From: Planctomycetota bacterium
GTDB lineage: Bacteria; Planctomycetota; Phycisphaerae; SM23-33
NCBI GenBank assembly: GCA_024275995.1
Contig: JAJRYB010000044.1
Location: 13,041-77,040, forward strand
DNA length: 64,000 nucleotides
Direction of reading: 5' to 3'
Shown here: piece after piece, positions 47,874-64,000 of the stretch
Numbering within the stretch: position 1 is the stretch's first letter
Layout of the letters: the number at the start of each line of letters is the position of its first letter
Made by a program: the position numbers and the translations under genes
The notes under the pieces: model-generated
Told to the model about the DNA's origin: nothing
What the model saw: the letters and a program-made list of their open reading frames with translations, nothing else
Database searches by the model: none

Positions 47874-49739
47874 ATGACCGATGAATCCCTCGACGTACTG
47901 AAGAGTAAAATGGACGCCGCGAGCTTCGAGAAACTCTCCGCACTGAATAATGACGAAGTCAACGCCTTCGTCGCCGAGGCGATAGAACTGTGCAGCCCGC
48001 AGCGCGTCGTCGTCTGCGACGACTCGCCGGAAGACGCTGCCTGGATTCGTCAGCAGGCGATAGACAACAAGGAGGAACGCCCCCTGGCGATCGAGGGGCA
48101 CACGGTCCACTTCGACGGGTACTTCGATCAAGCCCGCAAGAAGGACGTTACCAAGTACCTCGTGCCGGAGGGCGAACACCTGGATTCCAAGCTCAACCAG
48201 GTGGCCCGCGACGAGGGTCTGAAGGAAATGTGCGACCTTCAGCGAGACGCCTACGCCGGAAGGACCATGTACGTGCGTTTTTTCTGCCTGGGACCGACGA
48301 ATTCGATATTCGCGATTCCGTGCCTTCAGGTTACGGATTCAGCCTACGTCGCGCACAGCGAAGACCTGCTGTACCGCGGAGGATACGAACAGTTCAAGCG
48401 CCTTGGCGAAGGGGGCGAGTTCTTCAAGTATCGCCACGCCACCGGCGAGGTTGACGAGCGGATGATCTCTAAAAATCCGGACCTCAACCGCGTATACATG
48501 GACTACACGCGCAATACCGTGCTTTCCGTGAATACGCAGTACGCGGGTAATACCGTGGGCCTGAAAAAACTCTCGCTTCGCCTGGCGATTCGCAAGGCCG
48601 ATAACGAGGGATGGCTCGCCGAGCACATGTTCATCATGCGATGCAACGGTCCTCAAGGGCGGAAGACGTACTTCTGCGGCGCCTTCCCCAGCGCATGCGG
48701 AAAAACCGCCACCGCCATGCTTCCGGGCGAAAATATCGTCGGCGACGACCTGGCGTATTTCCGCGTCATAGACGGCCGGTTCCGCGCGGCGAACGTCGAG
48801 AACGGAATCTTCGGAATCATCGCCGACGTCAACGCCCAGGACGATCCGGAGATCTTCGACGTGCTTACCAGCCCAGGCGAGGTGGTCTTCTCGAACGTGC
48901 TCGTCAAGGACGGTAAACCCTACTGGATCGGGATGGGACAGGAGATTCCCTCCGAAGGCGAGAACTACTGTGGGAAGTGGGAAAAGGGCATGAAAGGCCC
49001 GGACGGTAAAGACACCACGCCCAGCCACAAGAACGCACGCTACACCGTGCGGATGAACGACCTGTCCAACAGGGACCCGGACTGGGATAATCCCAATGGC
49101 CTGCCGATCAGCGGGATTATCTACGGCGGACGGGACAGCGACACGCTCGTTCCCGTGCAGGAAGCGTTCAGCTGGGAGCACGGTATCTGCACGATGGGCG
49201 CCATGCTGGAAAGCGAAACCACGTCCGCGACGATCGGCGCCGAGGGCGTCCGCACGTTCAACGTGATGAGCAATATGGACTTCCTGTCGATGCCGATCGG
49301 AAAGTACATCCGGAACAACCTGGATTTCGCCGCGGACATCGACCGGCCCGATGTGTTCGGGACCAACTACTTCCTGAAGAAAGACGGGGTGTACCTCAAC
49401 GGAAAGCTGGACAAGAGCGTCTGGCTGAAGTGGATGGAACTTCGCGTCCACGGCGATGTCGAGGCGATCGACGTCCCGACCGGTCGGATCCCAAAATACG
49501 AAGATCTGCGCAAGCTGTTCGAGCAGGTGCTGGGCAAGGATTACACCGAGGCCGAGTACGTCGAACAGTTCACGATCCGTATTCCGCAGTGCCTGGCGAA
49601 ACTCGCCCGCATGGAAAAAATATACGCCACGGTTTCCGATACGCCCCCGGCTCTGACGCGCGAGCTGGTGGCACAGAAACAGCGCCTGGAAAAACTCCAG
49701 GCCGAGAAGGGCGATTACATTTCACCGCTGGATTTGTAA
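47874..49739 (+). CDS. pckG: Phosphoenolpyruvate carboxykinase (GTP)
   Basis: QYAGNTVGLKK, WLAEHM, GAFPSACGKT, VGDDLAY, HKNARYT, YGGRD. Confidence 0.95.
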   Translation: MTDESLDVLKSKMDAASFEKLSALNNDEVNAFVAEAIELCSPQRVVVCDDSPEDAAWIRQQAIDNKEERPLAIEGHTVHFDGYFDQARKKDVTKYLVPEGEHLDSKLNQVARDEGLKEMCDLQRDAYAGRTMYVRFFCLGPTNSIFAIPCLQVTDSAYVAHSEDLLYRGGYEQFKRLGEGGEFFKYRHATGEVDERMISKNPDLNRVYMDYTRNTVLSVNTQYAGNTVGLKKLSLRLAIRKADNEGWLAEHMFIMRCNGPQGRKTYFCGAFPSACGKTATAMLPGENIVGDDLAYFRVIDGRFRAANVENGIFGIIADVNAQDDPEIFDVLTSPGEVVFSNVLVKDGKPYWIGMGQEIPSEGENYCGKWEKGMKGPDGKDTTPSHKNARYTVRMNDLSNRDPDWDNPNGLPISGIIYGGRDSDTLVPVQEAFSWEHGICTMGAMLESETTSATIGAEGVRTFNVMSNMDFLSMPIGKYIRNNLDFAADIDRPDVFGTNYFLKKDGVYLNGKLDKSVWLKWMELRVHGDVEAIDVPTGRIPKYEDLRKLFEQVLGKDYTEAEYVEQFTIRIPQCLAKLARMEKIYATVSDTPPALTRELVAQKQRLEKLQAEKGDYISPLDL

Positions 49740-50003
49740 AAAGAAACAGCGTAAAGGTAAATAGCCGAACGGCAAGCCGCATTGCAACTCGTGCCATTAT
49801 CCGGACGTTGCGCCAATTGCCTTAAAACGGCGCGCCGAATATTCGTCCATAGCTTACATCTCGGCTTGCCGATCGGCTGTGTTTACCGGTTTTTTGCCGG
49901 TTTGTAAGTCCTGGCGTCCCCGAATTATCCCTCACGGCTCGATTTGTCCCTGCCGGGATTTTTTTTTGCGCACACCCCTGATACATTATTTTATAGAATT
50001 CCC

Positions 50004-50041
50004 TTGACATATCATGACAACGCACGCCATAATACGTCATG
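50004..50041 (+). promoter_or_regulatory. Promoter (TTGACA-18-CATAAT) overlapped by direct and inverted repeats
   Basis: TGACA at 50005 and 50015 (10-bp period); CATGAC-N17-GTCATG at 50013-50041. Confidence 0.5.
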
Positions 50042-50091
50042 TAGGTACATGCAGCGACAAGAATACTATTTGCCGCTATCGGGAGCATTTT

Positions 50092-50817
50092 ATGCCGATA
50101 TCCAGGCCAAATACCGACAAGCCTGCGTCCGCATTGTTTACCCTGGAGGAGCTTGCGACCCACCTGAAAGTCTCTCCGCGAACTATTCAGAGGATGGTGC
50201 AGGCAGAGGAGATCCCCGCGATAAAAATCGGGGGGCAGTGGCGATTCCTGCAGAACGTCATAGCCGACTGGCTTGCAATTCGAACCCAGCTGTCCGGAAA
50301 GGACAGTCTGACGCAGATGATAGCTACCGCCCCGAAGATCGTACCTCTCAGCCGGCTGATTACTCCAGAGCGAATTGTCCTTGGCATTGCCCCGGGGTCG
50401 AAACGCGACGTGCTGGCTCCTATCGTCGATACACTGGTAAACTCGGGGATCGTGGAGGATCGGGAAGCTTACATCCAGCGGCTTCTTGCGAGAGAGGAGA
50501 TGGTGACCACGGCAGTAGGAGCGGGGGTTGCGTTCCCGCATGTTCGTGAACCCGAGCAGACGGCAGTGGTGCGGCCGTGCATCGCTATCGGGATATGTCC
50601 CGACGGGACGGATTTCCAGTCGCTCGACGATGAACCCACCTACGTCTTCACAATCTGCTGCAGTGCGTCGGAAGTCGTTCACTTGCGGTTGCTGGCGAAG
50701 CTGTCTCTGCTTTTCCGGCAGCAGCATGTCGTACCGGCGATGCGAGCGGCAGTGGACAGCCGGGACGTGATGCGTCTTCTCATTAAAGCGGACTCCGATC
50801 TGACAGCGTCGTTCTGA
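50092..50817 (+). CDS. Excisionase-like HTH + PTS EIIA (Ntr/Fru-type) protein
   Basis: TLEELATHLKVSPRTIQRM...PAIKIGGQWRF; REEMVTTAVGAGVAFPH; DFQSLDDEP. Confidence 0.88.
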   Translation: MPISRPNTDKPASALFTLEELATHLKVSPRTIQRMVQAEEIPAIKIGGQWRFLQNVIADWLAIRTQLSGKDSLTQMIATAPKIVPLSRLITPERIVLGIAPGSKRDVLAPIVDTLVNSGIVEDREAYIQRLLAREEMVTTAVGAGVAFPHVREPEQTAVVRPCIAIGICPDGTDFQSLDDEPTYVFTICCSASEVVHLRLLAKLSLLFRQQHVVPAMRAAVDSRDVMRLLIKADSDLTASF

Positions 50818-50845
50818 CACTTCTCCAGCAAAGGAACGAATCCCA

Positions 50846-51658
50846 ATGAAACTGACTGAAACAATCCGAACGGAATGCCTGAAGCCGAGGATGACCTTGC
50901 GGAACAAAGCGGACGCCCTGGCTGCGGTTGCGGCCGCAGCCAAGCAGTGCCGGGTCCTGGATGGCGTATCCGAGGAGGAAATATTGCGCAGGCTCAGGGA
51001 GCGGGAGTCCCTGTGCAGCACGGGCCTGGGCGATGGCGTGGCGATCCCTCACTGCAGGCTTCCAGGCATCGAGGAATTTGTTGTCGGAATGATCACTGTC
51101 GATAAGGGGATCGATTTCGATGCCGCCGACGGAAAGAAGGTGCGCATCATCGCCTTTATCATCGGTCCGGAGTCGGACACCTCCGACCACCCGCGGATTC
51201 TGTCCGGGCTTTCGCTCAGGCTGAGCACGCCGGCACAACGTGAGCAACTGATTGCGGAAACCACTCCGGAAGGCATGTTCAACGCGATGAAGTTCGTGCC
51301 CCCAAGGGACGTGAACACGAAGGAACACACCGAAAAGCGACTCGTCCAGATCGTCGTTCAGGAGGAAAACCTATTTTATCGCATTCTCGAGGCCATCGAA
51401 AGTCTCGAGGGCACGGCGGCTACGGTTCTTGAAAGCAGAAACACGAGCGAGTACCTGACGAAGCTCCCCGTCTTCGCCAGTTTCCTTACGGACAGCAAGA
51501 GCCGGTTCTGCCGGGTGGTTATCGCCACGGTGCCCAAATCCCTCACGAACGAAATCCTTCGTCGCATCGAGGTCGTCTCGGGGGGAATTGCGGGCCGGAG
51601 CGATATTCTGGTGATTGTCCAGGACGTATTCCTGGCCGTTGGCGCATTGAGCATTTAA
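50846..51658 (+). CDS. PTS EIIA domain fused to a P-II-like C-terminal domain
   Basis: RESLCSTGLGDGVAIPH, DFDAADGKKV; C-terminal LVQIVV..E...I...GTAATVLES...PVFASF...VVIATV. Confidence 0.78.
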   Translation: MKLTETIRTECLKPRMTLRNKADALAAVAAAAKQCRVLDGVSEEEILRRLRERESLCSTGLGDGVAIPHCRLPGIEEFVVGMITVDKGIDFDAADGKKVRIIAFIIGPESDTSDHPRILSGLSLRLSTPAQREQLIAETTPEGMFNAMKFVPPRDVNTKEHTEKRLVQIVVQEENLFYRILEAIESLEGTAATVLESRNTSEYLTKLPVFASFLTDSKSRFCRVVIATVPKSLTNEILRRIEVVSGGIAGRSDILVIVQDVFLAVGALSI

Positions 51659-51678
51659 ATCGGCATGGAGATCATACA

Positions 51679-52917
51679 ATGAGTGCTCAGGCGATACTGA
51701 TTTGTGCTGCGGGCCTGTCCGCCGGGCTGGGTCTCTATGCGGGTAAACTCGCCAGGCGGTTTCGCCTGCCGTCCCTTATCGGCTACATGCTCCTGGGTGT
51801 AACCCTTGGCGTCTCCGGGTTGCGGCTGTTGGATGGTCAGGCTTTGGAGAGTATGGCCTTCATCACTAAAGTGGCGCTTGGTTTCGTCGCATTCGCCATC
51901 GGATCGGAACTGAGCTTTGCATGGCTGAAAAAGCAGGGCGTCGGCGTTATCGCCATCATCCTGACCGAGTCCTTCGGAGCGTTCCTGGTCGTCTTTGCGG
52001 GGGTGTATTTTCTGACGGGCAACCTTCCAATGGCGATTATGTTTGCCGCCGTAGCGCCGGCAAGCGCCCCGGCGGGGACGGTCTCGGTCATCCAGGAATA
52101 CAGGGCCAAGGGCCCGCTCACCAGGATACTGTACGCCGTGGTCGGGTTTGACGACGCGCTGGCGATTTTCATCTATGCCTTCGCCGCAGCCATTGCCAGA
52201 AGCCTTCTAGCCGCGGATGCGGGTTTGGCCGGTGGAGGCGGGAGCGAACTGCTTTTGGTCGCAGGTAAGGAAATCGGCGTGAGCCTTTTGATAGGTCTTG
52301 GTTGCGGTTTCCTGTATAACGCATTGGCGCCGCGGCTGACCAAGCCTGCCGAGGTGTTAGTCCTGACATTCGGCATTGTGGGGGTCGGTGTCGGGCTGGC
52401 GGAAATGTTCCATGGATCGCTGATCCTGTCGAACATGATCGTCGGACTCATCCTGGCCAACACTCGCAGCGAGGACACCGTCCGCCGCGTGACGTCTCCT
52501 CTCGGTGGGATAATGCCTTTGATATTTGTCCTGTTCTTCTGCCTGGCGGGGGCTCACCTGGACGTCTCGATGCTTTCCCGGATCGGGCTTGTCGGCGTGG
52601 TCTACGTTGTGTGCCGGTCCGTAGGGTTGGTAGGTGGTTCCTGGCTTGGCGCGTCTATCGGAAAGATGGACAGGAAGATCAGGAACAACGTCGGGCTTGG
52701 CATCCTCTCCCAGGCCGGCGTCGCGATAGGTTTGGCGCTCGTTGCCAAGGAACAATTCGATGCCATGGGTATACCGGAAGCCGGCAGGATTGGAAGCGAA
52801 CTCATTGTCGCCATTACCGCCACAAGCATTATCTTCGAAGTCGTAGGACCGATATTGACCAAGATCGCCCTGTCCAGAACCGGTGAAATCAACCGCGACG
52901 AAACCCTCGTACGCTGA
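51679..52917 (+). CDS. Cation:proton antiporter (Na+/H+ exchanger superfamily)
   Basis: About 12 TM; LPSLIGY, FAIGSEL, ASAPAGT, GFDDA, FFCLAGA.L, LSQAGVAIGL. Confidence 0.9.
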   Translation: MSAQAILICAAGLSAGLGLYAGKLARRFRLPSLIGYMLLGVTLGVSGLRLLDGQALESMAFITKVALGFVAFAIGSELSFAWLKKQGVGVIAIILTESFGAFLVVFAGVYFLTGNLPMAIMFAAVAPASAPAGTVSVIQEYRAKGPLTRILYAVVGFDDALAIFIYAFAAAIARSLLAADAGLAGGGGSELLLVAGKEIGVSLLIGLGCGFLYNALAPRLTKPAEVLVLTFGIVGVGVGLAEMFHGSLILSNMIVGLILANTRSEDTVRRVTSPLGGIMPLIFVLFFCLAGAHLDVSMLSRIGLVGVVYVVCRSVGLVGGSWLGASIGKMDRKIRNNVGLGILSQAGVAIGLALVAKEQFDAMGIPEAGRIGSELIVAITATSIIFEVVGPILTKIALSRTGEINRDETLVR

Positions 52918-53068
52918 GCGCGACGCGACCGCCGAAGGGGCAAGGGAATGGTTTATGCCCGATACCCAATGGAGGCGCCCGGTCTTGCCTGGGCGGCGCT
53001 ATGAACGCATCATTCCAAAGGTCGTGACGCAATATCGACAGAAAGCGAGTTTTGCTGAAGTTATTTCT

Positions 53069-53430
53069 TTACGAGTCCATTAGTCGCTTCATCACACTGA
53101 AGTAATCTCTATCATTAGCAGAAGGAGCATTCCCCTGATGTCCAACGGTTACAACATGTCCCCAGCCATATGGCTTTTCATGCCCAAGATACATCTTCAT
53201 CCAGGGACAGTAATTTTCGAAACATTCTTTTAACCAAGCATCAATTGGACTCTGATCCATTGAACAGATAAAATCATAATGGTAATAGTTCATAGCCGCC
53301 ATTAATAAACTTGCATTATATGAGCCATTCCGAAACCAGTGGTCATGAAAGCCGCCGATTAAAACCTGCTTGTTCCCGATGCTTATCAGTCTTCAATACC
53401 TTTTTGATAACGTTTTGAAAACGATAGCAT
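53069..53430 (-). pseudogene. Frameshifted, truncated gene fragment, possibly a PHP-like metallohydrolase N-terminus
   Basis: ATG 53430 gives MLSFSKRYQKGIED then TGA (53388-53386); an overlapping frame continues ISIGNKQVLIGGFHDHW...YDFICSMD and stops at the GC boundary. Confidence 0.3.
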
Positions 53431-53481
53431 ATTCTTATGCGTATCCTGTTTTCAAGTTTCAGGTGCAACTTATATTAAAGG

Positions 53482-56400
53482 TTAATTTTTACCGGGAATA
53501 CTTTTCAGTTTTATGAACATGTTTCCCAGCAGTTGTTTTGCTTTTTCCGGTTCAATTTTCGGTAAAATAATATAGACCAAATCCCGGCCAACCAGAAAAC
53601 GATTATTTTTTACCGGAACCTGGTTGCCATAAAGATTAAATACTTTCACATTGGTAATTGTTTTCGGTAAGGTAATCTCCACGGGGCCTGCATAATTCAC
53701 ATCTTTGGTCCATAAAGCAATAAGCGTCAATGGCATTTTGGATAATGATTTTGGTGGATAAGAACCCTTCGGGATATCAAAAAGGTAAGCGACATAATCA
53801 GTACTGGTTTTGAGTTTCCCAACAGGTTTTGCGTTGTTAAGCAGAGTTGCCATAGTATGGATAGCCGCAAGCCCGAGGCTGGGAGCCATGTTGCTGTCGC
53901 GGAACAATTCGTGATGACGGAAATAGGAGGCACAATTTTCTCCGAGAGCTCTGACATACATCCGGGCTAGATTATTGGCTTCATTTTTCTCCTGTCTGCT
54001 GCTGTAGTCAATCATAGGGGGACCAGATTCCCGAAATTCTTCGGTAAGGGCTATTCTGTACTTGCTGCCGATCTTTTTCAGGTCTTCCTGAGCTATTTTC
54101 AAATTCTTAGGGAAACCTCCATAAAAGGGGTTGCTGAGTCCGAAGCGGTAAGGATGATATGAGAATTGATCAAAATATGCATTTCCTTCCGAGATGGTTT
54201 TATTCCATATTGGTGTTCTGAAAGCATTCACCAGGCTGCCCCCTATAATAACAGCATCGGGAGCGATCTTTCGAATAATCGGAGAAGTTCTTTTTAGAAT
54301 TTTCAGATATTCCTCCGCGTTTAGATAAGTGTTCGGCTCATTGCAGATTTCCCAATATTTAACTTTTCCTTTATATTTTTTTACCAGAGCTGCTACCCAT
54401 GCTTCCCAGAGCTTGAACTGTTTTTCGGTCAGGCGCCCTTTGTCCAGATCATTTACCTGAATTTGTCCGTTAATCATCTCTCCCAGATTTCCGGGACCGG
54501 GAGCTAATGCCAGTTTTCCGGTAAAAAGTTTAGAGTTCTGGAGAGTCCACAACCACTCAATTCCTGCCTCATTGGCAGCGTCAACCATTTTTTCCACCCA
54601 AGGTTCTTCGCAAGCCGATTTCATCCGTTCAATATTCAGATAATAGTGCCATGTCCCAATTCCGAGATCTGCGGCTGTTTTATATTTCTTTTTAAGATCC
54701 TCTAATTCGGCTGGATTTCTCATACTGGGAATTGGATTGACACCGAAAAAATCTTTATTTCTTCCTGCGGGAGCGGGTTGCCCGATAATCAGACGATAGA
54801 TACCGTTGGCAACAACATGCGAATTCTCAAATATTTTTATTCTCAACAGCGCTGCACCTGTCAAAGTTCCGGGCAAAGGAATTACAATATACTTTGTTTC
54901 TTGATTGATTGTCAGTTTGAGATTCTTAGTTTTAGCAAATTGTCCATTGGGGGTGGCAAATGAGTATTCAACCTTTAAATCATGTGATTGAATTCCTAAG
55001 CTGGTTACGGCAATCTTAATTTTTTTCCCACTCACCAGTGATCCTGGAATTTCTTTGGCAAGATCGACAGTGATTTCAGATTTTGAATTACTGGTGTCCG
55101 TATGCTGACTCAGAACAACATCATCGACCCAAACTCTGCCAGCGCCTCGTACCTGAAATGTGGCGGCAACAATATTGGGATAATAGTCTTCCGGTTTCAG
55201 AGTAGCCTTGTAATCCTTCCATTGATCAGTAATATTGAATCCAGCACTTGCACTGTATGAACCATAGTGCCAGCTGGGGACCAGTAATGAGGCATTTATA
55301 AATACGGATTTATTTTTATTCGTTGTGTCGGAACTTTTTGCTCTGAATGACAACGTCACCGGATAGCCTCGGTCAATTCTTACAAAGTTGCTGCTTACTC
55401 TAGGTTGAATTTGATCTTTTGGGGGGAAGTGAAAGATTTCCAGGCATTTCCTTCCTGTTTGACCGGGAGTTGAAACAATTCTCCAGCCAGCCTGACCGGG
55501 CTTGAAAGGTTGCCATGCTGAACCACTCCAACCATTCCAGCCATTTTCAAATCCCTGATTGATAACTAGATTGTTATTTTTCAATGCCAGGTTAACCGGG
55601 TATTTGTTAATTACTTTTCCTGCCCCGATTATCCCTGTTTTTGTGGCACAGGGACTGTTTTTTGTGATATCCATAAAGTATGGTGAGTCCGGGTCAAAAC
55701 TGATAATTCCGGGATCTTCATATAGATCATTTGGGGTGAATTTCAAGCCCTTATAATAATCAATACCCTCTTTTTTCTGTGCAACCCTTCCAAGCCAGGT
55801 AACTTTTCCCAGATTCCAAAGGCAATTTTCTTTTACATTTTCCGCTTTCAGATTTACATCCTTAGTGACATTAATTCCAGATCGGCAGCGGGTGATTATA
55901 TTCTTTTCTATTCTGAAATCGGCTCCGGTTTTATCAAAAATACTTATTCCTGCACGTGATGACAATGCAATTGTATTGTTATGGACATAGTAGTTGTTCC
56001 CTTTACCTAACGAAATGGGAGAAGTTGTCCAGGCACCATGAAAATCATAAAATTGATTGCCGGCAATTTCCACATTGTCAGAATATCTGACGCTTAGACC
56101 TTGTCGTCCTTCATGAATTCTAGAGTTGAGAATTTTGATCCCTGAAGACTGCCAGATTAATACACAGTTTCTTCTGATATCAAAACCGTCGAAAACAACA
56201 TTATGAACATTATTTAACGATAATGCGTAAGCCAGATGCCGTCCATCAAGCACTGGCATGTCACCAAGGTGGCTTTTTACACCGCCTTTTGGGGGGGATT
56301 TTGAATTTACTTCAACGTTGGCAGTGAAAATTACTGGATTTTCTACTGTTCCTCCGGAAGTTATTGAAACTGCATACTTATGAAGGCCTTTTTCTTCAGG

Positions 56401-56823
56401 CCAATTGTTCAATGCATAATAAACGCCGGGATGAACAATGACCGTATCCCCTGCCTGTGGAGGCCGCCAATTACTGCTGACAATGGTTCCGTTTCTGGCC
56501 TTAGGCGTTCCTTTACATCCTGTCAGAGTAAAGTTGGTTCGTCCTGTATATTGAACTTCTACTTTGCCGATCATGGCCGTGCCTTTCATGGGAAACTGCA
56601 CTGCCCTCGCGACTTTGATTTCTGTCTGGCCTTCTTTTATTGCTTCAATCAGGCGAGTCGGTTGACCTCGGTCAATGGTGCGCCATGCATCCTGGGGAGT
56701 ATTTTTCAAACCGGAATTATTGTTGTTTCCATCCGGTCTGACATGGAAAGTTGCAGCAAATATGGTTGAATTTATTAATGATATTCCTATTATCAGGCCC
56801 AATAGTGAAGCTTTATTATTCAT
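53482..56823 (-). CDS. Secreted modular carbohydrate-active protein: parallel beta-helix + CBM-like + clan-A glycoside hydrolase
   Basis: Signal peptide; FHVRPDGNNNNSG..AWRTI and AGDTVIVHPGVY; beta-helix repeats; NQGFENG..VWVDDVVL; WEICNEPN, FSYHPY, IALTEE. Confidence 0.78.
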   Translation of the reverse strand: MNNKASLLGLIIGISLINSTIFAATFHVRPDGNNNNSGLKNTPQDAWRTIDRGQPTRLIEAIKEGQTEIKVARAVQFPMKGTAMIGKVEVQYTGRTNFTLTGCKGTPKARNGTIVSSNWRPPQAGDTVIVHPGVYYALNNWPEEKGLHKYAVSITSGGTVENPVIFTANVEVNSKSPPKGGVKSHLGDMPVLDGRHLAYALSLNNVHNVVFDGFDIRRNCVLIWQSSGIKILNSRIHEGRQGLSVRYSDNVEIAGNQFYDFHGAWTTSPISLGKGNNYYVHNNTIALSSRAGISIFDKTGADFRIEKNIITRCRSGINVTKDVNLKAENVKENCLWNLGKVTWLGRVAQKKEGIDYYKGLKFTPNDLYEDPGIISFDPDSPYFMDITKNSPCATKTGIIGAGKVINKYPVNLALKNNNLVINQGFENGWNGWSGSAWQPFKPGQAGWRIVSTPGQTGRKCLEIFHFPPKDQIQPRVSSNFVRIDRGYPVTLSFRAKSSDTTNKNKSVFINASLLVPSWHYGSYSASAGFNITDQWKDYKATLKPEDYYPNIVAATFQVRGAGRVWVDDVVLSQHTDTSNSKSEITVDLAKEIPGSLVSGKKIKIAVTSLGIQSHDLKVEYSFATPNGQFAKTKNLKLTINQETKYIVIPLPGTLTGAALLRIKIFENSHVVANGIYRLIIGQPAPAGRNKDFFGVNPIPSMRNPAELEDLKKKYKTAADLGIGTWHYYLNIERMKSACEEPWVEKMVDAANEAGIEWLWTLQNSKLFTGKLALAPGPGNLGEMINGQIQVNDLDKGRLTEKQFKLWEAWVAALVKKYKGKVKYWEICNEPNTYLNAEEYLKILKRTSPIIRKIAPDAVIIGGSLVNAFRTPIWNKTISEGNAYFDQFSYHPYRFGLSNPFYGGFPKNLKIAQEDLKKIGSKYRIALTEEFRESGPPMIDYSSRQEKNEANNLARMYVRALGENCASYFRHHELFRDSNMAPSLGLAAIHTMATLLNNAKPVGKLKTSTDYVAYLFDIPKGSYPPKSLSKMPLTLIALWTKDVNYAGPVEITLPKTITNVKVFNLYGNQVPVKNNRFLVGRDLVYIILPKIEPEKAKQLLGNMFIKLKSIPGKN

Positions 56824-56903
56824 AGATCTTATTTCCTTAATGGATTTTATAAAACAATTTTACACTGGAGCCAATTGCAAAAGTCTTTGACTCATTTTAG
56901 TTA

Positions 56904-57172
56904 GGGTTTGCTGAATAAGCTATTCTTTCGCGGTTTGGTTTTTCGGTGGGTTATCGTGGCCGGGATTCAGGCTGCTATTTTCATGGATAGCGTATTGGGA
57001 TGTTGATTTCGGCTTGCCTTGGCGGGCGCAGAGAGTATAAGGCAGGATAAGGTCCAGAGTGAATCGCCGCTTGCCCTGGCCAAGCTTGCCCTCAATCGGA
57101 ATCCGATCTGTCTCGTCCTGCCTAGCAAGTTTCCGCTGTTCTTTCAACACCTCGGCATTGGTTTCTGCTGCC
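56904..57172 (-). mobile_element. IS5-family remnant: transposase C-terminal fragment plus probable right terminal repeat
   Basis: RQDETDRIPIEGKLGQGKRRFTLDLI resembles the IS5 DDE C-terminal motif; end GGTTTGCTGAATAAG preceded by TTAG/TAG. No left end seen. Confidence 0.65.
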
Positions 57173-58942
57173 TTTCATATACTCCTTCACCTTCGGATTG
57201 CGATCCACATAATCATCAAGCAATATTTTTAATTGCTTATAGTCATCTTCAGTGTAGACATGACCGTCACCATTAAAACGCAGCAAGTTAAAGATCATGT
57301 GAGGTCCCAACTCTACTCCCTCCTTGATATATCTGAAGAAATTCTGGTAGTACACATGCTCATCTAACACCGGAACCATGCCTGGGCACAATGCCTTGAT
57401 ATATCGAGCGCGTTCTAAGTGTATTGTTGGGTCAAAGGTTGACACGTCGTATGTACGTATGACATCCTGCGTATCCTGGAAGAAGGGATGGGGAGACACT
57501 CCGATGATAAGAGCATCATGTTTGGCAACTTTGGCCGCATCATAGACCAACTTCTGAGTGTTGTAAATCGTCTTTTCCTTACCAACCCAATCACGATTTG
57601 AAAAAGCGTAATCGTGAGGCAAAAGGAAAGGCCAGTCGAATTTAATCCCATCCAAATTGTAACACTCGGGCTTGTCAGAAAGAAGGCGCCCCATCAGTTC
57701 GCTAAGATATGGCCCAGCTATTTCTGGGTCTGAATAATCCAGATTTATAATATCACCAGACTCGGAATACACATTACGATCATAGTGATGTATCAGGAAC
57801 CATTCCGGATGCGTTTGAAAAACCTCACTGTCCTTTTCAAACTGGTAAAGGCTTGCCCAGGCCATAATTTTGTATCCTCTGGCGTGGAGATCATCGACCA
57901 TACCTCGTAAATCAGGGAATTTATTGGTATCAACGCGCATATCTCCCTGCTTTGTATACCACCGATCGTCCAAAATCAAAGTTCTGATAGGAAGCTGGTG
58001 TTCTTCAATTACACCAACGACCTTGTTTACCATTTCGGCGGTAATGTTATGTACTGCTCGTCCTCTCTCTTCCTGAGTGTAAGCTGTACCTATGGGATCA
58101 CTATCAAGACAGACATGCTGATCTCCCCAACTGCACCACATCGGACCTAGCCACCAAGGCTCAATGTCTGCATCTGTTTTGGCTTTTGTTCGGCCTTCCC
58201 TGACAAGGATATCCGTATACTGTGCCAATGTCCCATATACGTCCTTGTTGGCTGAAAGCATTATCATAAAATGAGGGGATTCGAGCTCTTCACCTTCGTC
58301 TAGCCAATATAGGTTTTCACCAATACGAATGTGAAAGTCGTTTATTATAGTCGAGCCTTTATCCATCTTGACATGTAGACTCTCGGCAGCAACCAACTCC
58401 ATGGGCGCAATCAGGAGCTGATTTTGAAGGTGCTTAAAAATAAATAGCATCGGGTGAGGCGCAAACATCAAATCAGAATCTTCCGTATTGGCATCCAACC
58501 CGATAGTGCCGAGTTTACGCCTGCCAAGAATTGTCTGCCGGACCTCGTATGCACTTGGCGAGTTTATATGAGATCTGAAATCAATGCACTCGATAGCCTT
58601 TATTTCCGAACCTCTATTTAGAAGATACCATTTATGCAGCGGCATTCTACGTTTTACGGTTGCCTCAAAGTAGAATTCGATATGATCAGGTCTGCACTCC
58701 AAAACAACCCGTGGGCAATCATAGAGACAATTGGAAGGTAGATGGTAAGTAACGATTTCTATTCCCTCTTTGGTCTCAACTTCGACCTCAGGTGTTCCCC
58801 AGGTCGTCGCACGGTTTGTGACAGGCAAAAAGGGGATACCACTACTTTTCAGAAACATCAACTCACCATCTACCGTGTAAATCTGAAAATCTGCGTTGTC
58901 TTCAATTATAAGTTGATAGTTAGGGTTCTGGATGTTCACCAT
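57122..58942 (-). CDS. TIM-barrel glycoside hydrolase, GH36/GH31-like, cytoplasmic
   Basis: WCSWGD, LILDDRWY, FPDLRGMVD.LH..G, DGIKFDW (nucleophile), IRTYD; no signal peptide. Confidence 0.72.
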   Translation of the reverse strand: MVNIQNPNYQLIIEDNADFQIYTVDGELMFLKSSGIPFLPVTNRATTWGTPEVEVETKEGIEIVTYHLPSNCLYDCPRVVLECRPDHIEFYFEATVKRRMPLHKWYLLNRGSEIKAIECIDFRSHINSPSAYEVRQTILGRRKLGTIGLDANTEDSDLMFAPHPMLFIFKHLQNQLLIAPMELVAAESLHVKMDKGSTIINDFHIRIGENLYWLDEGEELESPHFMIMLSANKDVYGTLAQYTDILVREGRTKAKTDADIEPWWLGPMWCSWGDQHVCLDSDPIGTAYTQEERGRAVHNITAEMVNKVVGVIEEHQLPIRTLILDDRWYTKQGDMRVDTNKFPDLRGMVDDLHARGYKIMAWASLYQFEKDSEVFQTHPEWFLIHHYDRNVYSESGDIINLDYSDPEIAGPYLSELMGRLLSDKPECYNLDGIKFDWPFLLPHDYAFSNRDWVGKEKTIYNTQKLVYDAAKVAKHDALIIGVSPHPFFQDTQDVIRTYDVSTFDPTIHLERARYIKALCPGMVPVLDEHVYYQNFFRYIKEGVELGPHMIFNLLRFNGDGHVYTEDDYKQLKILLDDYVDRNPKVKEYMKGSRNQCRGVERTAETC

Positions 58943-59067
58943 TCTTTGGTTCCTTCTACAATATCTCGATTATCTGGATCCTGTGCAAGCACTGGTCACC
59001 ATCCATGCTTATTGACACAGTTTCATACCAACAGGGATGATCCCGATAACTCAATGCCTCTATTCAA

Positions 59068-60957
59068 CTAATGACCGGACACTACTGATTCTCGAAGCTT
59101 TATGTATCTCGGATTAATATCGAGGGAGATCGTGACCTTGCCGTCGACGCCGACGCGCAGTTTGCGGACATTTCGCCCAAACATGTCGAAGGTTTCGACT
59201 CCAAAATCTACCGGATTGAGCTTCAGAGCCTTGAGGTTGAATACGAATTCCATCGGTTTGATGTCCCGTGCATGACCGAGCTGGTAACTTTTCTTTTCCT
59301 TCGGGTCTAAGTACGCGATCAGAAGCCGACCCTCTGGCGTAGGCATTTGCCAAACACGGACAAGCTGTTCCCTTTTGTCCGGCACAAGCCCTCGGACAGA
59401 ATCAATGCGTTTCAACTGCTTCCAGCCGTGCTTCATCCGATAGGCGAGTTCCGCCACCGCCAGGTAGTCCAAGGTAGGACGACCATTCGCCCAGACGAAG
59501 CTATACTTGCCCGCTCTGAGACGATAGAGAAAAATGTTACTGGCCTTCAGTTCGATATTCTGCAGGATCCCGCGGACATATATTGCGGCCGCCCTTTGCT
59601 CACTGCACTGGCGCCACTTGCCGTTGATGAGCTTCTGCGGGGCCTTCGGGTTGATGATGCCCTGTTTCTCATAGTATGCCTGCACTTCGGCTTGGGTCAT
59701 AATATGCGGGCTGCCATCCCATTTGATCTTGCCAGTGCCGGCTTCAGTATTCCACATTGGCAGCCCGTGGGCGCCGCGCTTCTCGGCCAGTTTCCACATT
59801 GGCAGAAACTGCCCAGCCATGTTATTGCCTGGTCCGATCTGAAGCATCTCGGCATACGTGTGCGAGCTCAGGGCGTCAATCATTTGCAACGTACTTTTGC
59901 CATTTCGGGCGACGCCGTCCATCAGATACTTCATTCTTTCGTAGTGCTGTCCCGAGGACATTGACAGGCCGATAATTTTTGCGTGCGGTGCTTTGGCCCT
60001 TGTGATCTCGTAAATGTCCTGCACAAGATTAGCGTAGTCTCTGCCCATCTGCTTAGGCTTGGACCAGTCGTACGTCCATGTCTCTACGTTGGTTTCGTTC
60101 CAAACCTCAATCGCATCGATAGTTCCTGGGTATACCGTGCCATTGGGCCCGTAGCGGTCCCAGAAGGCATTGAGAAATCGCCGGAAGGCTAGGCGGTTCT
60201 TATTATTGACCATATTAGCCAGACTATTCTTATCATGGCTAATGGGCTTGCGGTCCTCCTTTGGCAATGACCAGACGGGCGGGCCTTGCACCACCCAAAG
60301 CACCTTTCCGCCCAGATCGTGCACTTGTTGCACTACCTTATCCATTTTTGACCATTTGTATTTCCCGGGTTCGGTTTCTATCCTGCTCCAATGCCTGAAG
60401 ACACGATATCGTTTGAAGCCATCGGGCATCACGCCGTAGCCCAACTCATCGGGATGAACATGGAAGCAGATCGGCCAGTCATCCGGTAACTCGTCAGGCC
60501 AAGGCGCCCGGCTGTAACCGAAGTCGAACTTCACCGACGAAACACTCACGCCTTTGATGGGTGAAACGGTGAATCTATATACACCGGGTTGCGGGGGCGT
60601 GACAGTGATCGTCTCCTTATAGTTTGTGATCCCAGCAGGCAACTCTGTTGTCCGCAACTCAGTTACCCAGTCCTCGGACAGATAGTCCCAGAGCTTCTGA
60701 GTCCATTGAATGGTCCGCCTCTGCTTCGAAGGATTCTCCCAACTCAGCGTAAATTTCAGCGGGTGCTTGGGTGTATAGGTTGGCACGCCGCGAATGCCTG
60801 CGTGGGTAAGATTGATTTCCGGCTTCGCTGCCATAGCACCATCGGAATTCAAAGAGGCTATCAGCAGAAAAACAAGCATTGCTATGATGGATGGCATTCC
60901 GTGAGAAAAGCCTGCGAAGTCAATCATCGTTTTCACCTTTCTAAATATCGCCACCAT
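59068..60957 (-). CDS. Exported clan-A glycoside hydrolase, GH39-like
   Basis: Hydrophobic N-terminus (alternative start 60927); WSRIETEPGKYKW..MD, IEVWNETN, SSHTY, MWNTEAG. Confidence 0.75.
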   Translation of the reverse strand: MVAIFRKVKTMIDFAGFSHGMPSIIAMLVFLLIASLNSDGAMAAKPEINLTHAGIRGVPTYTPKHPLKFTLSWENPSKQRRTIQWTQKLWDYLSEDWVTELRTTELPAGITNYKETITVTPPQPGVYRFTVSPIKGVSVSSVKFDFGYSRAPWPDELPDDWPICFHVHPDELGYGVMPDGFKRYRVFRHWSRIETEPGKYKWSKMDKVVQQVHDLGGKVLWVVQGPPVWSLPKEDRKPISHDKNSLANMVNNKNRLAFRRFLNAFWDRYGPNGTVYPGTIDAIEVWNETNVETWTYDWSKPKQMGRDYANLVQDIYEITRAKAPHAKIIGLSMSSGQHYERMKYLMDGVARNGKSTLQMIDALSSHTYAEMLQIGPGNNMAGQFLPMWKLAEKRGAHGLPMWNTEAGTGKIKWDGSPHIMTQAEVQAYYEKQGIINPKAPQKLINGKWRQCSEQRAAAIYVRGILQNIELKASNIFLYRLRAGKYSFVWANGRPTLDYLAVAELAYRMKHGWKQLKRIDSVRGLVPDKREQLVRVWQMPTPEGRLLIAYLDPKEKKSYQLGHARDIKPMEFVFNLKALKLNPVDFGVETFDMFGRNVRKLRVGVDGKVTISLDINPRYIKLRESVVSGH

Positions 60958-61145
60958 ATTTTACGACGGCCTCTAATTGTGCCGGCTGATGAGCCGCTAT
61001 CTTTAGTCAATATCACATAGGAGTCTTACCCATATGGTACTTCGTAGTGTTTCTCGACAGATAAAACAATCACAACATTCTTATCTGGTCTTAGTAATCG
61101 CATAATCTTTGAGACTCCCGAATGTTCAATAACGGCTCAACGCAA

Positions 61146-63998
61146 TCAGACAGAGTTTGTCCGCGATGGCCTGGCCACTTCTCTATTATCAAGTTCCAAT
61201 AACACTATTTCCAGTTGGTTGACCCGTTTAACGCACTGCTTTAGCAGTACTTCCTGCTTCACTAGAACTGCTGTTATGTTATCTGTCTGCGGCACGAAGT
61301 CTATCTCCTCACCGTTCATTGTAATATGGCCGATGCGATAATACTCCCAGTCTAATTGCTTCTGGTTTACGTAGGTGACTTCTATCCGCTTTCCGAGAAA
61401 TGTGAAGCTGACACCGACTAGCCCCTCACGGTCGAACTGCTGCTTGAGCAATTTGGGCTGAATATAAAGATCACCCTTCTTCCCTCGCAAACCGGACATC
61501 TGTGTCAATGCAGCAAGCACAAACCATGTTGCCGCTCCGGTCAGATAGCTGTATCCCCCACGCCCGGATTTATCGAAAAACGAGGGGACACAAGGCATAA
61601 TTTTTGAAGTGCCCGAATCCATGATTAGTTTAAGCACATCATTGAAGACATCAAATCCTTCACGAACAAAACCACGTTTATATAGTCCATACATGAACAT
61701 CGCATTCTGTTGGTTCCATATTGCCCCATGTTCTTTATAACCGTACACGAATCCAGTAACCCTGCCGAAATCCAGTTTGATCTCCTTAAAGTCCGAGCAA
61801 AGTCGTAGTCCTCCCGTCTCGGGATTGCGAAGGTAATGAATAACGGATTCGTAGAGGCTCTGAACGTGTTTCTCCGTAGCTGTTCCGAACATGGTCGGTA
61901 ATACCTGTGAAGTTAAATCAATGCGAACACCATTAGGATGATCACCGTGAACCCGTTGCGACTTATTGTCATAATGTCCGTTGAAAAACTCTTTGTTATC
62001 TTCAGTTTTCAACCATTCATTCCGACGTAGGTGTTCAAATAGAAAATCCGCTTTGGCCCATAAATCTGCAGCAATCTCACTGATTGTGACCTTTGACCGT
62101 TTCCCGGAGACTTCATGATAAACACTTTGCATATATTTGTCCAGATGTTGCTTCTTAGTCTTAGGACACTTGTAGTCAATATCTTGCTGACCTGGAACAC
62201 GATCCAGCAGCACCAGCATTTCATCCAGAAGCTCAATTTCCTTTACACCTTTCTGTTCATCAAGCCATTTCAATAAGGCCCCAAGTTCTCGCAGATTCCA
62301 TGCATACCAATGCGTAAAACATACAGATTCTCCCTCTTGTCGTGCATTATCGTAGGTATCGTTCCAGTCGCCGCCTTCCAGAAGAATATTGTTGTGTTTG
62401 CCAACATTGTAGAACGATGACAATACTTGAACAAGAATATGCTCCAACACTGTTCCCCTGTAGACCTGGCCGGAACGTGTCTGTTGTTCGTTCCCGCTTT
62501 TGTCATTCCACTCCTTGTCGTTAGACTGGCACCGCATGGACAGATGGTCCTTCCAATATGGTAGTTCTTGGAACAAAATCTCAACATCTCCTGATTGCTC
62601 AATATAAAATTTCAATACAAAGAACGGCCATGCTGCATGGTCACTCCATACTCGGACAATATTGTTGCGATCCGCTTTGAACTCACCTGGGTTTGCCCCA
62701 ATAATTGTTGCATTGGTTCCATCGACACGGCATCCGCAAACAATGTTCAACATTTCCTTTCTCGTTCCGGACGGGTCAATAAGAAACAGTGAAAGCAGGT
62801 CTGACCACAAATCCCTCCACCCACGCCCCCCTCGACCATATCCAAAATCAGCTAAATAAGAATTACCGTACACTTTTCGGTAGACAAGCTGGGCGTTCAT
62901 CCATCGCATAATGTTATTAAAATCTGAATCGGCTGTTCTAAACTCGACACCACTGGTGAGTTCTTGCCAGCGGGCAACTGTGTTTCCCAAAGCGATATCT
63001 GTCTTTACTACAGTCCCGAAACGTTCTTCCCAGAGTTTCATATTGTCAAGGTCTTCTGTGATGCCGTGCAGGATTACATATGCAGCAGTTCGGCCTGGTG
63101 CAAGCGTAATTGTAGAAAAACGCATTGCGCCTATTGCCTCCAAACCGCTCAGATCATTGGTACAACGCTTTGGAGCAGAAAGATGTTTAAACACCGCTTC
63201 GGGATTTTCAAGAGTACCTCCTTCCCCAACAAAATCGCGCAAATTGCCCCATATTTCCATTGGAGCCATTCCGTGTTCTTCAAACCCAAGTACTGCATAT
63301 TGGGTGGCATTCTCCGTGTGCCCATTTTCATCATGCTGGATTCGGGGTTTGACTACCACTCCATGCTCACATATCCTTACTATATTGAACATAGTGGTCA
63401 CGTGACGATGGTCTCGTAAATGATCGCAAGACCGACCAAAGATAGGAGTGGCTGCTGTAGGAGAAAAACGCATATCACAACTACCTATATTGGTAATCTT
63501 CACTTTCATAACTTCTACCTGTTCTCCACTGGAGGGTACAAACACTGTTATGCCGGCTTTAAGTTGCAAATCGGAATTAATAGTTTCCAAGTGGAACCAA
63601 CCTGGCCCTGCTTGTACAGCAGCTTGTTCACAACTATTCCAGTGCTCGGCTCTTGCAAAAGCGCTAACGCCAGTTATAGACCAAGGCTTGTGGCCTTCCA
63701 CATATACCCAAACATTTCGACTGGCGTTGGAGCGATGTAGATCTTCTTTTACGACAGGGATAGTCAAGTAGTGATTAAAGTCGGAACATATATCCCCTTT
63801 CAACTCTGGCGTGACAAAACTTTTCATACTTTCCTCGTTACATAGGGGAAAATAGAGTCCTGAAATGTCTCGTGGATCAGGCATGCAAAAGGAGCCATCA
63901 CTTTTGTCTGTGAATTTCCATAATGGCCCAGTCTTGTTCCGAGCGGCTCGCCCCCCATATTCCCCATTAACTTTATTCAAATCTTCTCGTATATCCAT
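61146..63998 (-). CDS. GH94 glycoside phosphorylase
   Basis: GRGWRDLWSD, SDHAAW, EGGDWND (catalytic Asp), EHGAIWNQ..MF, YLTGAATW. The ATG lies 2 nt from the window edge, so the N-terminus could extend. Confidence 0.88.
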   Translation of the reverse strand: MDIREDLNKVNGEYGGRAARNKTGPLWKFTDKSDGSFCMPDPRDISGLYFPLCNEESMKSFVTPELKGDICSDFNHYLTIPVVKEDLHRSNASRNVWVYVEGHKPWSITGVSAFARAEHWNSCEQAAVQAGPGWFHLETINSDLQLKAGITVFVPSSGEQVEVMKVKITNIGSCDMRFSPTAATPIFGRSCDHLRDHRHVTTMFNIVRICEHGVVVKPRIQHDENGHTENATQYAVLGFEEHGMAPMEIWGNLRDFVGEGGTLENPEAVFKHLSAPKRCTNDLSGLEAIGAMRFSTITLAPGRTAAYVILHGITEDLDNMKLWEERFGTVVKTDIALGNTVARWQELTSGVEFRTADSDFNNIMRWMNAQLVYRKVYGNSYLADFGYGRGGRGWRDLWSDLLSLFLIDPSGTRKEMLNIVCGCRVDGTNATIIGANPGEFKADRNNIVRVWSDHAAWPFFVLKFYIEQSGDVEILFQELPYWKDHLSMRCQSNDKEWNDKSGNEQQTRSGQVYRGTVLEHILVQVLSSFYNVGKHNNILLEGGDWNDTYDNARQEGESVCFTHWYAWNLRELGALLKWLDEQKGVKEIELLDEMLVLLDRVPGQQDIDYKCPKTKKQHLDKYMQSVYHEVSGKRSKVTISEIAADLWAKADFLFEHLRRNEWLKTEDNKEFFNGHYDNKSQRVHGDHPNGVRIDLTSQVLPTMFGTATEKHVQSLYESVIHYLRNPETGGLRLCSDFKEIKLDFGRVTGFVYGYKEHGAIWNQQNAMFMYGLYKRGFVREGFDVFNDVLKLIMDSGTSKIMPCVPSFFDKSGRGGYSYLTGAATWFVLAALTQMSGLRGKKGDLYIQPKLLKQQFDREGLVGVSFTFLGKRIEVTYVNQKQLDWEYYRIGHITMNGEEIDFVPQTDNITAVLVKQEVLLKQCVKRVNQLEIVLLELDNREVARPSRTNSV

Positions 63999-64000
63999 GA

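Follow-up and report, generated by a model that had tools for sequence, protein, structure and literature searches.

A putative two-component ion exchanger in Planctomycetota that pairs a CPA2-type antiporter with an EIIA-PII-like fusion protein

Results and Discussion

We analyzed three consecutive genes, denoted P1, P2 and P3, in a 64,000-nucleotide segment of the genome of a Planctomycetota bacterium (assembly GCA_024275995.1, contig JAJRYB010000044.1, positions 13,041 to 77,040; this whole segment is hereafter called the window). P1 encodes a helix-turn-helix (HTH) protein with an EIIA domain of the phosphotransferase system (PTS), P2 (50846-51658) a fusion of a second EIIA domain with a PII-like domain, and P3 a predicted cation:proton antiporter (CPA). 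The interpretation that we favor, and consider fairly probable, is that P2 and P3 together make up a two-component ion exchanger in which P2 is the detachable cytoplasmic regulatory subunit of P3, a bare antiporter of the CPA2 type. CPA antiporters set the cytoplasmic pH, the Na+/K+ content and the cell volume, and it is poorly understood how CPA2 proteins without an RCK/KTN domain, of which there are many, are switched.

Under the proposed mechanism, the phosphate would pass from phosphoenolpyruvate (PEP) to EI, then to HPr, the only one in the genome, and on to His69 of P2, so that P2 would report the PEP/pyruvate state, that is, the carbon and energy status of the cell. The fused PII-like domain would be the output, with its long, conserved loop contacting the cytoplasmic face of the antiporter and gating the exchange. 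Unphosphorylated P2 might bind and inhibit P3, to be released by phosphorylation, the direction of this switch being a guess by analogy with the PtsN-YcgO, GlnK-AmtB and SbtB-SbtA pairs. P1 would read the same phosphorelay as an optional transcription factor and would probably control the operon from the promoter located directly upstream (Table 1). We infer the phosphorylation of P2, its binding to P3, ion exchange by P3 and DNA binding by P1 from the comparisons described below; taken together, the module probably links the carbon and energy state to ion and pH balance.

Co-conservation of the fusion protein and the antiporter

Using tblastn, we compared the window proteins with 39 loci containing a homologue of P2. 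In 23 of these, the gene immediately downstream of that homologue is orthologous to the antiporter gene (46-62% identity); the other downstream neighbors were a T2SSF platform protein (10 loci), a contig end (3 loci) or something else (2 loci; in one of the two, L096, the P2 homologue is immediately preceded by a more distant antiporter). Outside the T2SSF-linked clade, the pair is adjacent in 23 of the 25 informative loci, with gaps of 12-25 bp, and these loci come from Planctomycetota, Kiritimatiellota (Pontiella), Hydrogenedentota, Fidelibacterota and Fermentibacterota; one Spirochaetota metagenome-assembled genome (MAG) shows this arrangement, too. In the reciprocal search of 401 genomes of the phylum, every match to P3 with at least 48% identity adjoins a gene for the PII-like domain. 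A preliminary description of this locus had noted that a lack of co-conservation of its genes would speak against its interpretation; for P2 and P3, the synteny survey and the reciprocal search show strong co-conservation. Furthermore, loci L103 and L105 share their gene order (~70% DNA identity), except that precisely P2 and P3 are missing from L105; the pair behaves, on this sequence comparison, as a unit that is gained or lost as a whole.

In the maximum-likelihood tree, all the T2SSF-linked copies form a single clade (100/100) nested among the antiporter-linked copies. Because of this nesting, the antiporter linkage is taken to be ancestral, and the T2SSF clade, judging from the tree, switched its partner once. 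The loci of this clade (L012, L014, L017, L019, L021, L089-L092 and L094) come from Phycisphaerae (Anaerohalosphaeraceae-like), with a gene for a ~585-aa lipoprotein-like protein upstream, and genes for the T2SSF membrane protein and a MlaD-domain protein downstream.

Several loci contain related arrangements. A single-domain EIIA (~150 aa) is encoded directly 5' of an antiporter of the same family in L005:2292-3999, L020:2337-4028 and L098:2374-4146, either near the main module or alone; identity of these antiporters to P3 is ~31-37% in L005 and L020, and ~47% in L098. Matches to P3 at 30-38% identity in the 401 genomes lie in 560-650-aa frames and are probably paralogues with their own C-terminal domains. 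In the Spirochaetota MAG, genes for V-type ATPase components (vATP-synt_AC39, V_ATPase_I) directly follow the three-gene module (L104:6787-8702), a gene order that may point to a common role in ion energetics.

A divergent PII-like domain and its loop

In the AlphaFold2 model of full-length P2 (36-sequence alignment, predicted local distance difference test score, pLDDT, 85.6), the C-terminal domain has the order of elements beta (164-171), alpha (174-185), beta (191-198), long loop (199-220), beta (221-230), alpha (231-245) and beta (254-261). Foldseek searches with this model were dominated by EIIA and band 3 domains and gave no information on the C-terminal domain, which, for this reason, we folded separately with 29 sequences from related loci (pLDDT 84, predicted TM-score 0.76). 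Of the top 50 PDB matches of the lone domain, almost all were to PII proteins (E 8e-6 to 2e-4), including GlnB, GlnK, GlnZ, plant and algal PII, GlnK in the complex with AmtB (2ns1_B) and the PII-like DUF3240. The similarity of the fold is complemented by a transitive sequence link. The C-terminal profile matches a 143-aa stand-alone protein of genome G006 (E 6.5e-9), which itself passes the gathering threshold of the Pfam family P-II (PF00543; 28.3 vs 25 bits), and hhalign of the same profile against a 122-aa stand-alone protein of genome G020 yielded a probability of 95.5%, with the loop included in the alignment (PLFAxFW vs PIFAGFR). The PII-like nature of this domain, suggested in the preliminary description, is thereby corroborated by both the fold match and the link to P-II. 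From these models and sequences, we place it in the PII superfamily as a divergent member rather than as a canonical GlnB/GlnK protein, because both PROSITE signatures of PII proteins are absent (see below).

The loop between the second and third beta-strands corresponds in position to the T-loop and is the proposed surface of contact with the partner. Compared with the antiporter-linked group, the T2SSF clade, which is the shallower of the two, is more conserved everywhere except in this loop: the mean column entropy is 0.91 vs 1.58 in the EIIA domain and 1.05 vs 1.61 in the core of the PII-like domain, as against 1.64 vs 1.74 in residues 199-220. Four positions that the antiporter-linked group conserves, K206, W214 (L in the P2 of the window), D216 and F221, are replaced or variable once the partner has switched. 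A search for strictly group-specific residues, in which only L38C passed, was less informative than the comparison of entropies. These entropy differences and replacements are suggestive of the T-loop-like loop being a partner-specific contact.

A different explanation of the same arrangement is that P2 serves the PTS as a general output protein, acts on several targets and is merely co-expressed with the antiporter, its PII-like domain sensing a small molecule, such as an adenylate, 2-oxoglutarate or a cyclic dinucleotide, rather than contacting P3. PII-like proteins often bind nucleotides or second messengers, as does the c-di-AMP receptor PstA (PMC4316997), and PtsN has many partners (PMC13104625); one clade pairs P2 with the T2SSF protein, and the variant P0138 additionally contains an N-terminal receiver domain. 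Nevertheless, we consider this explanation rather unlikely given the tight adjacency of P2 and P3 (12-25 bp) over five named phyla and the Spirochaetota MAG, with which the reciprocal search agrees, the gain or loss of the pair as a unit, the absence of the PII nucleotide-binding signature in all 72 family members, and the loop conservation that tracks the identity of the partner.

The EIIA domain of P2 and a PTS without a sugar permease

The N-terminal part of P2 is an EIIA domain of the Ntr/fructose type (PTS_EIIA_2, residues 10-147; 78.7 bits with the cut-off of 27). Across 36 homologues, the predicted phospho-acceptor His69 and R53 are invariant and H115 is nearly so, and the three residues align with the active-site motif of PtsN in the structure 2a0j; the IPH motif is found in 69 of the 72 members of the P2 family. 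Foldseek aligned the EIIA part of the model with 3urr and 1a6j, both structures of EIIA-Ntr, at a TM-score, normalized to the target, of 0.86-0.92. P2 is not PtsN proper, scoring 73.5 bits against the TIGR01419 equivalog cut-off of 138.7. Anion exchangers of the SLC4 family (band 3, AE2 and NDCBE) have cytoplasmic domains that the full model likewise matches (E ~1e-6); in eukaryotes, too, the EIIA fold serves as a regulatory domain of transporters.

The genome assembly (2.64 Mb, 97% complete) encodes one HPr and one EI, clustered on contig C36 with a gene for a 155-aa PtsN-like protein; HPr kinase is absent from the genome. No EIIC (PF02378, PF03611) or EIIB (PF02302) was detected anywhere in this genome, other EIIC families (mannose and glucitol types) not having been searched for. 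The absence of a sugar permease and the signaling type of the PTS, both proposed originally for the locus, thus hold for the genome as a whole within these families. There are eight EIIA_2 domains, which, beyond P1, P2 and PtsN, belong to three more proteins (contigs C132, C119 and C103/C2). Because EI, HPr and eight EIIA domains are present and no EIIB or EIIC was found, the PTS of this bacterium appears, from its gene content, to have an exclusively regulatory role, its outputs being transporters and HTH proteins.

Among these additional proteins, the one encoded on contig C132 (8917-11673, minus strand) is a 918-aa fusion of Na_H_Exchanger with an unassigned ~130-aa middle domain and two tandem C-terminal EIIA domains, both of which retain the histidine. 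It has 4119 homologues at E <= 1e-3, and the top 120 all combine PF00999 with PF00359, the top matches coming from Planctomycetota, Kiritimatiellia, Verrucomicrobiota and Thermodesulfobacteriota. The protein of contig C119 (1499-3418, plus strand) is an amino-acid permease (AA_permease_2) with a C-terminal EIIA domain, another transporter wired to the PTS that lacks a permease. A second paralogue of the HTH_17-EIIA type lies in two pieces at the ends of contigs, C103:1-651 (minus strand) and C2:4-327 (plus strand); the two pieces overlap with nearly identical sequence, and the contigs probably abut.

It could be argued that the EIIA domains are not phospho-acceptors of the PTS but structural or ligand-binding regulators, similar to the EIIA-like cytoplasmic domain of SLC4/band 3. 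The Foldseek matches to the band 3 and AE2 domains, the dependence of eight EIIA domains on a single HPr, and the score of P2 below the PtsN equivalog cut-off are compatible with this possibility, which nonetheless seems to us quite unlikely. Without phosphotransfer, it would be difficult to account for the conservation of His69, R53 and H115 described above, which extends over ~36-72 homologues of several phyla, and EI and HPr are intact in the genome. The phospho-accepting histidine noted in the preliminary description is indeed present in both EIIA domains of the module (GVAFPH, His150 of P1; GVAIPH, His69 of P2).

The antiporter

P3 matches Na_H_Exchanger (PF00999) over nearly its full length (residues 20-395 of 412; 96 bits with the cut-off of 26.2) and contains a paired aspartate motif, conserved in 22 of the 23 orthologues, which we take to be indicative of the CPA2 type. 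It lacks a cytoplasmic regulatory domain of its own, with only ~19 residues following the last hydrophobic segment. Conceivably, P3 carries a substrate other than a monovalent cation or proton, in which case the output of the module would not be Na+/K+/pH homeostasis: solved CPA structures do not match P3 at E <= 0.01, and its single match in NCBIfam is weak (27 bits). We regard such a substrate as quite improbable, considering the full-length Pfam match, the CPA2-type motif and the position of the Spirochaetota module next to the V-type ATPase genes.

Weighing the proposed exchanger

Several observations weigh against the proposal that P2 and P3 constitute a dedicated two-component exchanger. 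With regard to the domain assignment, the matches to PII proteins are weak by TM-score (0.45-0.55), at 7-19% sequence identity; the last ~120 residues of P2 have no Pfam match even at E <= 10; the C-terminal profile retrieved only noise, and no PII, from the PDB sequences; and the PROSITE B-loop (PS00638) and T-loop (PS00496) signatures are found in none of the 72 family members, with E. coli GlnB, used as the control, matching both. With regard to the antiporter, there is no match among solved structures at E <= 0.01. A three-fold plug of the GlnK kind is unlikely as such: PII trimers plug trimeric transporters, and CPA antiporters are dimers. With regard to the partnership, the T2SSF protein is the neighbor in 10 of the 11 members of its clade (the eleventh is cut by the contig end), and of three P3 matches at 44-47% identity, a single-domain EIIA lies upstream of one, and no EIIA accompanies the other two. 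Because of this clade and of the few close antiporter relatives without an EIIA neighbor, the partnership, as seen in the available sequences, is not obligatory. Finally, the correlation of the pairwise identities of P2 and P3 (r = 0.87; Mantel 0/2000), which speaks for their linkage, is, in part, expected from shared ancestry alone.

The HTH-EIIA protein and the organization of the locus

P1 consists of HTH_17 (51 bits) and PTS_EIIA_2 (89.1 bits with the cut-off of 27), and all 47 homologues from other genomes detected at E <= 1e-9 show the same architecture. We considered whether P1 is a PTS-controlled regulator of the PRD type (MtlR/LicR) and rejected this assignment: no PRD domains lie between HTH and EIIA in P1, which contains only HTH_17 and EIIA_2, and none of the 47 homologues has a PRD domain. 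By its domain composition, HTH_17-EIIA is a distinct two-domain family. A P1 homologue is found directly upstream of the P2 homologue in the window, in L006 (Hydrogenedentota), L026 (Fidelibacterota), L086 (Planctomycetota), L103, and, in Spirochaetota, L104, as well as, in partial form, in L024 (Fidelibacterota); it is missing from most other P2 loci and occurs without the P2-P3 pair in L102 and L105. The three-gene form that was initially described thus recurs in other phyla, but from this distribution, P1 is an optional, though recurrent, third component rather than a core one. No operator motif for P1 common to several phyla was found; ATTGTMC repeats are present in the group of L102, L103 and L105, and the window has only its local palindrome (Table 1).

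As described originally, the three genes are co-oriented and separated by gaps of 28 and 20 bp. P2 is preceded by the sequence AAGGAA and P3 by GGAGA, both resembling ribosome-binding sites, and no terminator was found between the three genes, which look, from these signals, like one operon. An alternative upstream ATG of P1, at 50014, would give a longer open reading frame; the start at 50092 is favored by a GGGAG ribosome-binding site 8 nt before the ATG, and is likely because of this site and because the promoter sits within the longer frame. The Rfam scan of positions 49600-53500 matched no RNA family.

Table 1. Features of the P1-P2-P3 locus, in window coordinates
Feature	Position	Strand	Basis
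Terminator-like hairpin and T8 run after pckG; boundary with the upstream transcription unit	49946..49967	+	Sequence
Putative promoter of the three-gene operon, sigma-70-like, TTGACA-18-CATAAT	50004..50033	+	11/12 matches to consensus
Perfect palindrome CATGTAGGTACATG, just 3' of the -10 hexamer; candidate operator only	50038..50051	.	Sequence
P1, 241 aa: HTH_17 (residues 15-62) and PTS EIIA_2 (89-231; His150 in GVAFPH, codon 50539-50541)	50092..50817	+	Pfam
P2, N-terminal EIIA domain, Ntr/fructose type, residues 1-150; predicted phospho-acceptor His69 (codon 51050-51052)	50846..51295	+	Pfam, alignment
P2, C-terminal PII-like domain, residues 164-270 (107 aa)	51335..51655	+	AlphaFold2, Foldseek, profile links
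P2, T-loop-like beta2-beta3 loop, residues 199-220, motif YLxxxPLFAxFWxD; proposed partner-contact surface	51440..51505	+	Alignment, model
P3, 412 aa: Na_H_Exchanger membrane protein, DD motif D158 D159 (52150-52155)	51679..52917	+	Pfam, alignment

The gene immediately upstream of P1, on the same strand, is pckG, which encodes the GTP-dependent, PEP-forming PEP carboxykinase (PEPCK; 620 bits), and the preliminary description pointed out that the module follows it, a hint at an arrangement that would make the two a local PEP-sensing unit. We rejected this functional link and find such a unit very improbable: pckG ends 352 nt before P1, the spacer contains a terminator-like hairpin and a separate, strong, near-consensus promoter, and a PEPCK match is found neither near the 30 related loci first examined nor in L102-L105. 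We therefore treat the adjacency of pckG as coincidental, on the basis of these sequence features. On the other side of the module, the G+C content drops right after P3, from ~0.60 to 0.41-0.50 in window positions 53000-64000, and the first gene past P3, on the minus strand, encodes a 1113-aa secreted protein.

Occurrence and variants of the PII-like domain

In an exhaustive HMMER scan of 1.84 billion representative sequences, the PII-like domain was detected in 234 clusters at E <= 1e-3, nearly all of which are ~270-aa proteins with the domain at ~155-270, that is, it is almost always fused to EIIA. Among the sampled Planctomycetota genomes, 15 of 401 carry the domain. The match statistics of locus L088, which belongs to the class of the window, equal those of L019, from an Anaerohalosphaeraceae MAG, and thereby point to Phycisphaerae as this class. 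Short matches (~119-125 aa) were considered as potential stand-alone genes and rejected, those in L106 and L107 being frameshifted copies of the fused gene. A genuine split form is present in L110, where the two halves are encoded by separate, translationally coupled genes: a gene for EIIA (157 aa) is overlapped by a stand-alone PII-like gene (122 aa), and these are followed by a gene for a 410-aa membrane protein and, after it, one for Na_H_Exchanger (445 aa). In addition, stand-alone PII-like proteins of 141-143 aa adjoin a DUF748/AsmA-like membrane protein in L108:1611-2892 and L109:1036-2274 (minus strand), with neither EIIA nor an antiporter nearby; it is the copy from genome G006 that passes the P-II threshold. 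The metagenomic protein P0138 (432 aa) combines Response_reg, EIIA and the PII-like domain, so two-component phosphorylation may feed the same adaptor.

The EIIA, PII-like and antiporter parts are fused in some lineages and adjacent in others, which suggests that they work together. More speculatively, the EIIA-PII-like fusions might represent an undescribed class of portable signal adaptors that join the PTS and PII, the two main systems of metabolic signaling in bacteria, in one polypeptide, with EIIA reporting the PEP/pyruvate ratio and the divergent PII half clamping, by means of its T-loop-like loop, membrane proteins that lack a regulatory domain of their own, most often a CPA2 antiporter but the T2SSF platform protein in a single clade of Phycisphaerae. 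We put this generalization forward as a tentative one, less likely to be correct than the assignment of P2 as the regulatory subunit of P3.

Significance and comparison with known systems

If P2 indeed regulates P3, the regulatory PTS gates ion exchange outside Proteobacteria, in the Planctomycetes-Verrucomicrobia-Chlamydiae (PVC) group and in candidate phyla without a PTS sugar permease. The PII superfamily would gain a new output domain, and PII-type transporter plugs a new input, the phosphorylation of a histidine in a fused EIIA. A function could also be assigned to many proteins annotated as "PTS sugar transporter subunit IIA" in organisms without PTS sugar transport. With only two proteins, the system is compact and amenable to testing.

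Control of a cation/proton antiporter by PTS-Ntr, transporter plugs of the PII type, and EIIA-Na_H_Exchanger as an annotated architecture are already known. What appears to be new is the EIIA-PII-like fusion as a dedicated antiporter subunit, and neither this fusion nor an EIIA-CPA2 fusion is described in the literature that we searched, which likewise contained no experimental study of Na_H_Exchanger-EIIA fusions. Thus, the original statement that the combination is uncharacterized stands for the EIIA-PII-like fusion, but has to be qualified by the demonstrated inhibition of YcgO by PtsN and by the abundance of EIIA-Na_H_Exchanger fusions.

In Bacillus subtilis KhtSTU and in Escherichia coli KefFC and KefGB, one or more genes for soluble regulators are followed by the gene for a CPA2 antiporter, and the module described here follows the same operon logic, a comparison that we draw from general knowledge. 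The regulators of those systems are of the RCK/KTN or flavodoxin-like kind, responsive to c-di-AMP or to glutathione adducts, and not of the PTS or PII type. The fusions of PF00999 with PF00359, such as the protein of contig C132, are similar in that they connect EIIA to an exchanger of the CPA2 type and occur in the same phyla, indeed in the same genome, but each of them is one polypeptide, which contains one or two EIIA domains and lacks a PII-like domain.

With GlnK-AmtB and SbtB-SbtA, the P2-P3 pair shares the PII-type fold, the long beta2-beta3 loop, the adjacency of the regulator gene to the transporter gene and, as proposed here, direct gating. The input in those systems is uridylylation or the binding of nucleotides or 2-oxoglutarate, whereas for P2 it is predicted to be the fused EIIA phospho-domain; furthermore, the PII signatures are absent from P2, and the partner is a CPA antiporter, normally dimeric, as opposed to a trimeric channel or transporter.

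The closest functional parallel comes from E. coli, where unphosphorylated PtsN directly inhibits the K+/H+ antiporter YcgO by binding to the CorC domain located in YcgO's tail, which reinforces its inhibitory hold on the transport helices (PMC11808508; bioRxiv 10.64898/2026.08.14.744764). There, an Ntr-type EIIA on a phosphorelay without a permease controls a cation/proton antiporter by direct contact, and a small cytoplasmic regulatory domain acts on the transport helices; we propose the same for P2 and P3. YcgO differs in belonging to CPA1 and in having its own RCK and CorC domains, and PtsN is a free single-domain protein encoded elsewhere. P3, by comparison, is a bare antiporter of the CPA2 type that carries the DD motif, and a PII-like domain, rather than CorC, is fused to EIIA and encoded directly upstream. 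Relative to YcgO, it seems, from this comparison of architectures, that the regulatory domain has moved from the transporter to the EIIA protein.

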